This document shows positions 4,488 to 4,850 of a DNA stretch of 64,000 nt, one piece after another. The notes beneath the pieces are model-generated. The model saw nothing but the letters and a program-made list of their open reading frames with translations. It did no database searches and had not been told where the DNA came from. Source of the DNA: an uncultured candidatus Porisulfidus sp. Its GTDB lineage: Bacteria > Pseudomonadota > Gammaproteobacteria > Poriferisulfidales > Poriferisulfidaceae. The stretch covers positions 860,492-924,491 of the forward strand of contig OZ251520.1 in assembly GCA_965242985.1 (NCBI GenBank), given 5' to 3'. How positions within the stretch are numbered: the first letter of the stretch is position 1; each line of letters starts with the position of its first letter. The translations under genes and the position numbers were made by a program.

Positions 4488-4650
4488 GGTGCTATAATCC
4501 AGCCCGCATCAGGGGCGAAAGCGAACCACCTTTTTTCGTGAAGAATCCAGCGGCAGCAGGGCTGAATCGCGGTGCGCTCCGCGCACTCCGCCCCGAATAC
4601 GGGGGGGGGGGGCTAGAAACCTCTCCGCGCGCCGGCCGGCCGGCCGGCCG
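4488..4650 (+). promoter_or_regulatory. Leader/promoter module copy A (extended -10 TGcTATAAT, GNRA hairpin, GC hairpin, G12 tract at 4601-4612, (GCCG)5)
   Basis: Paralogous to copies at 4670-4850 and 30232-30454. It has no gene of its own and sits directly upstream of copy B. Confidence 0.6.
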
Positions 4651-4669
4651 CCGTGCCGGGTCCCGGTCT

Positions 4670-4850
4670 CGGCTGGTATAATCCCGCCCGCTTTCAGGGC
4701 GAAAGCGAGCCACCCCTTTTCATGAAGACCCGGCGGCGGCAGGCAATGAAGAGCGCCGTTCCGCGCGCGCTCCTTGCGCGTGCAGTCCTGAATACGGGGG
4801 GGGGGGGCAGGAACCGCTCCGCGCGCCGGGCGCCCGGCGCGCAGCCGCTT
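4670..4850 (+). promoter_or_regulatory. Leader/promoter module copy B (TGgTATAAT at 4674-4682, G12 tract 4796-4807) upstream of autotransporter gene 1
   Basis: Conserved blocks tataatcc[ca]gcccgc ... gggcgaaagcga ... ctgaatac-G12-...tccgcgcgccgg shared with copies A and C. Confidence 0.6.

Follow-up and report, generated by a model that had tools for sequence, protein, structure and literature searches.

The 64,000-nucleotide (nt) stretch of contig OZ251520.1 from an uncultured candidatus Porisulfidus species, in the following termed the window, contains three copies (A, B and C) of a conserved module of about 170 nt, two of which directly precede genes encoding autotransporters (genes B and C). 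Each copy encompasses an extended homopolymeric G tract whose length determines whether a start codon located upstream shares its reading frame with the gene. We are confident that this tract confers heritable phase variation, whatever the detail of its action. The explanation that we prefer, with a moderate degree of confidence, holds that a family of genes for giant autotransporters or adhesins carries the module as its 5' cassette and is phase-variable, being controlled by classical slipped-strand translational phase variation. The role of the G tract as a slipped-strand phase-variation site of autotransporter genes had been proposed in an earlier note on this DNA, and it has now found comparative support in the conservation of the module, the variable lengths of its tract and a pair of near-identical loci that are one G apart.

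The three copies, with tracts of G12, G12 and G11, were located in the window sequence at the positions where the earlier note had placed them (Table 1), and their alignment displays a mean column identity of 74%, with invariant blocks formed by TATAATCCnGCCCGC, by AATAC together with the G run and by TCCGCGCGCCGG. The claim that long G runs in one shared context are not a product of chance is borne out by a comparison with shuffled sequences. In the window, whose G+C content amounts to 73.8%, a run of ten Gs can be placed at eight positions, all of them within the three tracts, compared to an expectation of 0.69, and none of 100 shuffles reached eight. Likewise, the -10 block TATAATCCNGCCCGC, searched with up to two mismatches, occurs in the window at exactly three sites, which coincide with the modules (0.24 expected), and no further run of G, C, A or T of eight or more nucleotides was found in the 64 kb outside the three tracts. 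The same distribution extends to 175 kb of related sequence, where G or C runs of 7 nt are few, runs of 8–9 nt are absent and all runs of at least 10 nt reside in modules, comprising 12 module G tracts and three C tracts of the promoter region. The length of the tract is thus far above the background of the genome, as expected for a contingency locus.

The comparison is based on relatives of gene C in a protein collection and on DNA that was fetched around nine loci (L002–L010), thereby adding four further metagenome assemblies. These relatives constitute a small set of paralogs with 46–87% identity, which are located on few large contigs (0.5–1.9 Mb, one of them, ctg22168, circular with 1,879,402 bp) originating from ENA metagenome assemblies and one NCBI record, whose contig of 1,877,398 bp bears P0001–P0003, P0007 and P0013. 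The resulting set consists of 12 module copies, or 13 if L010, a second assembly of the L004 locus, is counted. At each of the nine fetched loci the module precedes a homologous autotransporter gene, and its predicted conservation in related genomes, whose lack had been named as an argument against the proposal, is thus found in four other assemblies. The most constant feature across these relatives is the G tract itself, which ranges from G10 to G14, with a single G5 at L009. Searches beyond this set were less productive. When genome contigs were scanned at the protein level with gene C, the sole match was an unrelated locus of Bacteroidales (30% identity), and neither of two scans of JGI metagenome contigs with a DNA pattern of the tract plus its downstream box gave a match. 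The lineage seems to be absent from the latter collection.

The variability of the tract is best illustrated in the two assemblies of the same locus, L004 and L010, which are 99.86% identical over 8623 nt and which differ by 11 substitutions and a single indel consisting of one G in the tract. With G12, L004 is out of frame and its gene was called from an internal GTG (P0008), whereas L010, with G11, is in frame and its gene was called from the upstream ATG, with the product P0121 beginning with MSVIRRSRSARHPSEIIRGGGHRSRSAG..., which matches the in-frame product predicted from L004. Such a difference by one G is the kind of variation expected of a contingency locus. A comparable length difference is found between orthologous copies without a gene behind, with G12 in copy A and G14 in L007A.

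The consequences of this variability become apparent in the reading frames of the module. An ATG or GTG located 13–24 codons before the tract opens a frame that extends to the tract in all 10 gene-linked copies. Taken together, these copies contain no stop up to the tract in the upstream frame, compared to 18 and 5 stops in the other two. An ATG-led open frame that reaches the tract with 12 or more codons would be expected in 32–71% of shuffles of an individual copy, and the joint chance of the open frames is about 10^-3 as a product if the copies were independent and about 0.3% over roughly eight independent lineages. In each copy, one class of tract lengths joins the upstream ATG to the signal peptide and the whole gene. 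Seven copies are currently found in this state, namely B (G12), L002 (G10), L006 (G12), L007B (G12), L009 (G5), L010 (G11) and the paralog P0122, while five others (C, L003, L004, L005 and L008) carry exactly one extra G, which in four of the five leads to a stop at a TAA or TAG 2–3 nt past the tract. The remaining class, with one G too few, is not represented in any of the 12 loci (B, C, L002–L010 and P0122), the chance of which is about 0.8% for this specific class if lengths were random. Its absence could result from selection against the ATGA or far-out-of-frame state, from asymmetric slippage or from a systematic over-call of homopolymers. The AT-rich flanks of the tract hold out-of-frame stops on either side, with TGA, TAA or TAG found within 2–5 nt ahead of it and, in 9 of 12 copies, TAA or TAG within 1–3 nt behind it. 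These relationships are exemplified by copy C, which at its present length of G11 encounters a stop 3 nt past the tract, while G10 or G13 would be in frame with gene C and G9 or G12 would lead to a stop at a TGA overlapping the ATG at 30455.

Three further observations relate the upstream start to the synthesis of the protein. In B, L005, L006, P0122 and L009, neither ATG nor GTG occurs on the way from the tract to the signal peptide's hydrophobic core, and a complete signal peptide could thus only be obtained from the upstream start. The locus L009 combines a non-slippery G5 with the loss of the downstream ATG, which is replaced by GCA before ACC GGT GCG CGT, and remains in frame throughout. 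Finally, the net indels between the hairpin following the tract (H3) and the signal peptide, which are -6 in C, -3 in L008, +12 in L005 and +9 in P0122, are all multiples of three (chance about 0.01). As judged from these sequence features, the leader region is probably translated from the upstream start in a frame that matters, whereas we read its amino acid sequence as being of hardly any importance. In silico, the change of a single nucleotide would alter expression, with the next length class terminating 2–3 nt past the tract.

With respect to transcription, extended -10 boxes with TGn preceding TATAAT, CATAAT, TACAAT or TAAAAT were identified in 9 of 12 copies. The hexamer TATAAT is very rare in this genome; counting both strands, the window has only seven, most of them in intergenic DNA. 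No -35 box is detectable and a consensus promoter scan of the modules did not reveal any -35/-10 pair, nor did a terminator scan find an intrinsic terminator at the modules. In a sister lineage, a second homopolymer is found in the promoter region, where tracts of C16 (L005, 3660–3675), C16 (L006, 4925–4940) and C14 (L009, 128–141) end 7–8 nt upstream of an extended -10 box in the context TTG-Cn-ATATTGcTATAAT. In the paralog L004/L010 this place is occupied by no more than TTGCGCCCCCGATCTG, and the window's own copies carry no promoter C tract. It is probable, as judged from its position, that this C14–C16 tract acts as a second, transcriptional switch of the Bordetella fim type.

The sequence comparison itself shows that the module is conserved, that its frames follow the logic described, that tract lengths differ and that indels leave the frame intact. 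From these features we infer the start codon in use, the occurrence and rate of switching, the role of the hairpins and the resulting phenotype as follows. Transcription would proceed from a -10-only, in most cases extended (TGnTATAAT) promoter with a start just past the box, and the mRNA would open with a stem-loop. Translation would begin at the ATG or GTG about 30–65 nt downstream, 13–24 codons ahead of the tract, and the ribosome would then cross the poly-G (Gly3-4) and about 20–30 codons rich in Arg, Pro and Ala before entering the core of the signal peptide. The G10–G14 run is expected to slip by mispairing at replication, with one G being gained or lost at high frequency. At the in-frame length the full precursor would be produced (ON), while one extra G would in most copies direct the ribosome to the conserved TAA or TAG 2–3 nt past the tract (OFF). 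The GC hairpins H3 and H4, which are located between the tract and the downstream ATG, would probably hinder internal initiation and in this way tighten the OFF state. Since each paralog would switch independently, the family could generate combinatorial variation of the cell surface, to which the C14–C16 tract of the sister lineage would add its probable transcriptional switch.

The hairpins of the module differ in their degree of conservation. Directly after the -10 box, a hairpin (H1) is possible in every copy, each time with a different sequence. The GNRA-type hairpin that had been suggested in this region was rejected, since copy C supports a longer stem, which is better described as a 7-bp stem CGCUUUC/GAAAGCG in copy B that is extended by an insertion in copy C. 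A GC hairpin preceding the tract, which had been considered as part of the module, is present only in the subfamily of the window type and absent in L003–L006 and L008, and was dismissed as a general feature. More constant is H3, a GC hairpin of 7–10 bp located 13–17 nt past the tract, whose position is kept in 11 of 12 copies, followed by H4, which ends a few nucleotides before the downstream ATG. In the window type, H3 is formed by GCGCGCCGG/CCGGCGCGC, in the L004–L006 type by GCGGGCCU/AGGCCCGC, with G-U pairs in L005 and L006. Covariation in H3, where compensatory changes mark the L004–L006 lineage, amounts to one formally counted compensatory pair, a second one recognized by eye (G-C to U-A) and the described G-U wobbles, and the fold z-scores of the hairpin region range from -2.3 to +0.5. 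No Rfam family was detected on the modules at the gathering score, and permissive thresholds returned only matches at chance level (E of about 1–10). We thus consider the evidence for RNA structure as modest. The previous suggestion that the whole module may be a structured 5' untranslated region (UTR) is revised, since most of the leader is probably translated and the module is not mainly a 5' UTR.

Several observations weigh against the proposed translation across the tract or limit the force of the numbers given above. The copies are related by descent and probably also by gene conversion, and their counts overstate independence. The tract lengths are those of assembly consensus sequences, apparently obtained from long reads, in which runs of G11–G14 are error-prone, and individual ON and OFF calls, even the difference between L004 and L010, could thus be technical. 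In copy C, a GTG at 30353, which is located nine codons ahead of the tract, shares the frame of gene C at the present G11, and the assignment of this copy as OFF holds only if translation starts from the ATG at 30307. Gene B contains multiple other frame changes and hence provides only weak evidence on start-codon use. The G+C content by codon position of the extension is flat (0.65/0.61/0.60 before and 0.79/0.79/0.73 after the tract, compared to 0.51/0.58/0.76 in nearby, undisputed coding sequence), which together with the poor conservation of the peptide makes this region unlike ordinary coding sequence. A downstream ATG (MTGAR...) is conserved in many paralogs and preferred by gene callers, and if used as start it would lead to a signal peptide of normal length and leave the tract in the leader. 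Conversely, the upstream start implies a signal peptide of 69–80 amino acids with an n-region of 40–55 residues, which is unusual. Its assignment as an extended signal peptide (ESPR, PF13018) was rejected, since no Pfam match was obtained in three N-termini of the ON state at E<=1, nor in P0011 or P0122. A clear Shine-Dalgarno sequence precedes neither of the two starts, although many genes of these genomes also lack one. Finally, the pairing of H3 is kept while the encoded residues change completely, which indicates that the nucleotide sequence is at least partly shaped by constraints at the level of RNA or related to initiation.

Some of these points are accommodated by a leader-ORF (open reading frame) switch, which we regard as improbable, though deserving of serious attention. 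In this case the downstream ATG (MTGAR...) would be the true start and the upstream ATG would open a regulatory upstream ORF (uORF) holding the tract. In the OFF state, this leader ORF would stop right past the tract with H3 and H4 being folded and the downstream ATG occluded, which may be followed by Rho-dependent polarity. In the ON state it would terminate where a TGA overlaps the ATG (ATGA), thus permitting termination-reinitiation, with an in-frame read-through as third outcome. Such a mechanism would still be a heritable slipped-strand phase variation, proceeding via translational coupling. It is consistent with the conservation of the ATG and the MTGAR N-terminus in most paralogs, with the observation for C, L002 and L003 that the leader frame at minus one G ends at the TGA of an ATGA shared with the main start, with the end of H4 about 5 nt before the ATG, where it would cover the place of a potential ribosome-binding site, and with the compensatory and G-U changes that preserve the pairing of H3 in a leader that shows no coding-type signature at third codon positions and whose peptide is not conserved. 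It does not account for B, L005, L006, P0122 and L009, where no downstream start precedes the signal-peptide core, or for the indels upstream of the MTGAR ATG, whose restriction to multiples of three would not be needed by a mere leader. Moreover, the ATGA-coupled length class is found in none of the 12 loci and the z-scores of the hairpin region are weak.

Both processes could also be combined in a composite translational switch with multiple states, which we find rather doubtful, where joined frames would lead to the extended precursor, reinitiation at ATGA to the normal precursor and an early stop to the sealing of the downstream start by H3 and H4. Slippage of the RNA polymerase or ribosome might in addition make the OFF state leaky and the promoter C tract of the sister lineage might serve as second dial. 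If correct, the cassette would constitute a portable expression module that is spread by gene conversion and serves a whole adhesin family in an uncultured lineage with reduced genome.

A switch at the level of transcription or RNA structure that does not involve translation appears very unlikely. It would assign to the tract the role of a spacer in a second promoter (AATAC...G-run...TAAAAG) or of a part of a structured 5' UTR, in which the length of the G run alters folding, mRNA stability or premature termination, the candidate fold being a pairing of the G run with the CCUUUCC box. Such pairing with a conserved pyrimidine box 8–10 nt downstream is predicted by RNAalifold in 11 of 11 sequences, the AT-rich flanks of the tract are conserved in a genome with 74% GC, the relics A and L007A keep long tracts with no gene directly behind, and Bordetella fim promoters use C-stretches in a similar manner (PMC1891110). 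However, for a promoter-spacer switch the tract would be located between or directly upstream of core elements, while the G tract is found 86–141 nt downstream of the only good -10 box. The hexamer following the tract (TAAAAG or TAGAAG) does not end in the conserved T, and copy B has CAGGAA in its place. In conjunction with the missing -35 box, this has led us to reject a second promoter in which the G tract would be the spacer. The absence of terminator-like sites and of an Rfam family also argues against an RNA-based switch, which moreover leaves unexplained the open frames, the out-of-frame stops bracketing the tract, the indels in multiples of three and the occupation of only two of three length classes. 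The earlier suggestion of a transcriptional or translational switch is thus narrowed to the latter, since the upstream frame crosses the tract and no -35/-10 pair surrounds it.

Programmed recoding, where slippage of the RNA polymerase or ribosomal frameshifting on the G run of a fixed DNA would provide a constant mixture of products, is hardly tenable. Long homopolymers are sites of slippage, and here a slippery homopolymer is followed by a conserved GC hairpin, with five loci at one extra G being correctable by a +1 slip. Classical -1 frameshift signals contain a spacer of about 5–9 nt, and such a signal was rejected since the 13–17 nt between the tract and H3 are too long; moreover, neither a slow codon nor a stop is located right at the shift site. 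Furthermore, the tract length in the DNA varies between copies, orthologs and near-identical loci, and L009 is in frame despite lacking a long tract and hairpin. Equally hard to sustain is the assumption that no switch exists and that the module is a 5' sequence shared by duplication or gene conversion, with G runs as neutral oddities or length differences as errors of sequencing or assembly, since tracts persist at the same position in lineages with strongly diverged flanks, run lengths are bimodal (<=7 elsewhere and >=10 only in modules), out-of-frame stops are found on both sides of the tract in most copies and independent assemblies agree on its presence, even if all data are consensus assemblies with error-prone homopolymers above 10 nt, the copies are clearly related by descent and relic copies keep their tracts.

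Table 1. Coordinates of module features and associated genes in the window, and tracts at the related loci.
Feature	Position	Strand	Remark
Copy A, extended -10 box TGcTATAAT	4490–4498	+	TATAAT at 4493–4498
Copy A, GTG aligning with upstream start codons of B and C	4538–4540	+	
Copy A, pre-tract GC hairpin GTGCGC-TCC-GCGCAC	4572–4586	+	
Copy A, G12 tract	4601–4612	+	relic copy without gene behind
Copy A, degenerate post-tract GC palindrome	4623–4660	+	CCGG repeats
Copy B, extended -10 box TGgTATAAT	4674–4682	+	TATAAT at 4677–4682
Copy B, 5'-proximal hairpin H1, CGCUUUC-AGGGC-GAAAGCG	4689–4707	+	
Copy B, upstream ATG	4722–4724	+	likely translation start; second in-frame ATG at 4746
Copy B, G12 tract	4796–4807	+	Gly3-4 in in-frame (ON) state
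Copy B, post-tract hairpin H3, GCGCGCCGG-GCGC-CCGGCGCGC	4821–4842	+	
Copy B, second post-tract hairpin H4	4844–4858	+	
Gene B, signal-peptide hydrophobic core and cleavage region ALPAALLALPLLFAAGPAGAH	4887–4949	+	
Gene B, giant autotransporter	4722–11764	+	open 4722–9434, then at least 5 frame changes before beta-domain 10076–11764
Copy C, -10 box TATAAT	30234–30239	+	
Copy C, 5'-proximal hairpin H1	30246–30281	+	copy B stem lengthened by insertion
Copy C, upstream ORF	30307–30396	+	ATG 30307 to TAA 30394–30396
Copy C, G11 tract	30381–30391	+	
Copy C, post-tract hairpin H3, GCGCCGG-ACGU-CCGGCGC	30409–30426	+	fold z-score -2.3
Copy C, hairpin H4, CCGGCCG-UCU-CGGCCGG	30433–30449	+	ends 5 nt before ATG 30455
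Gene C, 1460-aa (amino acid) autotransporter	30455–34837	+	from downstream ATG (MTGARCARG...)
Locus L002			G10
Locus L003			G13
Locus L004			G12; assembly ERZ25068400
Locus L005			G13; C16 tract just upstream of -10 box
Locus L006			G12; C16 tract just upstream of -10 box
Locus L007			G14 (L007A) and G12 (L007B); tandem pair orthologous to A and B
Locus L008			G13
Locus L009			G5 only; C14 tract just upstream of -10 box
Locus L010			G11; same locus as L004, assembly ERZ25070167

Returning to slipped-strand translational phase variation as the preferred explanation, the module can be compared to several known systems. In the opa genes of Neisseria, a CTCTT pentamer repeat inside the signal peptide underlies family-wide switching. 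The autotransporters NalP and MspA of N. meningitidis contain coding homopolymeric tracts of strain-variable length, which are ON at every third length (PMC3723659). In B. pertussis, coding G/C tracts of bapC and tcfA vary within cultures, with bapC containing two at its 5' end (PMC1891110), and tracts of 9–22 G/C are found in autotransporter-type genes of Bordetella, whereas in fim2, fim3 and fimX a promoter C-stretch just upstream of the -10 box tunes transcription (PMC1891110). The pmpG family of chlamydiae carries a poly-G tract of G8–G9 (PMC4488443).

As in NalP and MspA, the G/C tract of the module is located near the 5' end of an autotransporter frame and only every third length is in frame. 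In contrast to these poly-C tracts, the module tract is longer (G10–G14) and resides in a long, poorly conserved N-terminal extension 20–30 codons ahead of the signal-peptide core, it belongs to a cassette of about 170 nt that is common to many paralogs (-10 box, 5' hairpin, upstream start and post-tract hairpins) and that is known here from its sequence, and many of its copies retain a second, downstream ATG. With Bordetella it shares the occurrence of G/C tracts in autotransporter-type genes of a GC-rich Gram-negative organism and, in L005, L006 and L009, the C14–C16 tract 7 nt upstream of the -10 box as in fim, here paired with a G tract. Unlike in Bordetella, neither a fim box nor an activator site of the Bvg type was identified, the copies in the window lack the promoter C tract and the host is an uncultured lineage with about 74% GC and a genome of about 1.9 Mb. 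As in pmpG and opa, one repeat recurs in the 5' or leader coding region throughout a multigene family of surface proteins, and each paralog can thus switch independently. Different from both, the tract is located ahead of the signal-peptide core and enclosed by out-of-frame stops and GC hairpins. The differences to known homopolymer-switched autotransporters are thus matters of detail.

The best-known cases of phase variation by contingency loci come from pathogens adapted to a host, including Neisseria, Haemophilus, Campylobacter and Bordetella. In the present case, the strategy appears to act on an entire family of giant autotransporters, in an uncultured lineage of extremely high GC content with a genome of about 1.9 Mb that is known only from metagenome assemblies, which points to strong fluctuating selection on the cell surface by host, phage, predator or attachment. 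It also bears on annotation, since gene callers mis-start or truncate such genes depending on the tract length (P0008 versus P0121, and P0010), and homopolymer errors in long reads will flip their apparent ON or OFF state. The cassette offers defined parts that are amenable to reporter assays, namely the upstream start, the tract bracketed by stops and the hairpins before the second ATG.

Copy A had been described as a duplicated leader, which has no gene of its own and is located directly upstream of copy B. While this arrangement is confirmed, its ortholog L007A does not suggest a purposeful duplication. L007A is followed by the decayed start of an autotransporter gene, with GAACCGAGGATCGGGGCGCGCCCTGCGCGCGGGTTGGCGGCGGCGTT resembling GAACCGATGACCGGCGCGCGTTGCGCGCGCGGGCTGGCGGCGGCGTT of copy C, and this remnant, which runs straight into the promoter of B', is deleted further in the window. 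The decayed gene start behind L007A identifies copy A as a relic of a module whose gene was lost. Copy A has diverged from its ortholog more than copy B from its own, and still has the -10 box, the GTG, the tract and the TCCGCGCGCC box. At G12, its GTG frame terminates at a TAA within the -10 box of copy B. At G10 or G13, the frame from the GTG at 4538 would end at a TGA overlapping the ATG of copy B at 4722 (ATGA), which may be a coincidence or the remnant of a coupling between tandem modules.

The genes controlled by the module encode proteins that would be exposed at the cell surface. A C-terminal autotransporter beta-domain (PF03797) was detected by Pfam in gene C (E=1.6e-11) and in the C-terminal part of gene B at 10076–11764 (E=6.7e-9), and such a domain is also present in P0011. 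Signal peptides are visible in the translations of module-linked genes, and genes B and C thus combine both hallmarks of type Va autotransporters. A Tat signal was rejected, as RR motifs are found in some copies and are in most far from the hydrophobic core. In the passengers, adhesin repeats of the LapA and Calx-beta types gave weak matches, most of which stayed below the threshold. The closest relative of gene C is P0001, with 85% identity, on the 1.88-Mb NCBI contig. Compared to its intact ortholog P0009 (2305 amino acids), gene B contains at least five frame changes, near 9333, 9418, 9560–9970, 10073 and 11630, none of which is located at a homopolymer. The counterpart of residues ~1558–1695 of P0009 is missing or diverged, and the beta-domain is still recognisable. 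Gene B may thus be a decaying pseudogene, though its switch reads ON, or the repeat-rich region 9332–11640 may be misassembled.

Different gene contexts are found around the modules. Directly upstream of module C, three tandem genes at 21974–30162 code for TonB-dependent receptors of 885, 919 and 1000 amino acids (Plug and beta-barrel). A gene for a TonB-dependent receptor is also located upstream of the L003 module, but with an EF-P gene on the opposite strand in between. At L004 (9697–12208, also L010 7323–8622), three tandem DUF1326 genes of 202 amino acids each, with a mutual DNA identity of about 91–95%, follow directly downstream of the phase-variable gene.

Rare -10 boxes of the TATAAT or CACAAT type, often followed by CC and a GC hairpin, were also encountered near other gene starts (window 20673, 34949 and 62182; L002 at ~3200; L007 at ~2440). 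Among them, a CACAAT hexamer is found 12 nt before a tRNA gene at 34967 and one box about 9 nt before the ATG of an asparaginase in L007, which suggests that the organism commonly employs promoters of the -10-only type, whose transcripts are short or leaderless. Finally, the region 41150–42440 of the window is AT-rich, which is unusual here (e.g. ttatttatatgttaTATAATcatatttatagaaag on the minus strand at ~42438), and flanks an RNase P RNA gene at 42029–42366 (311 bits).

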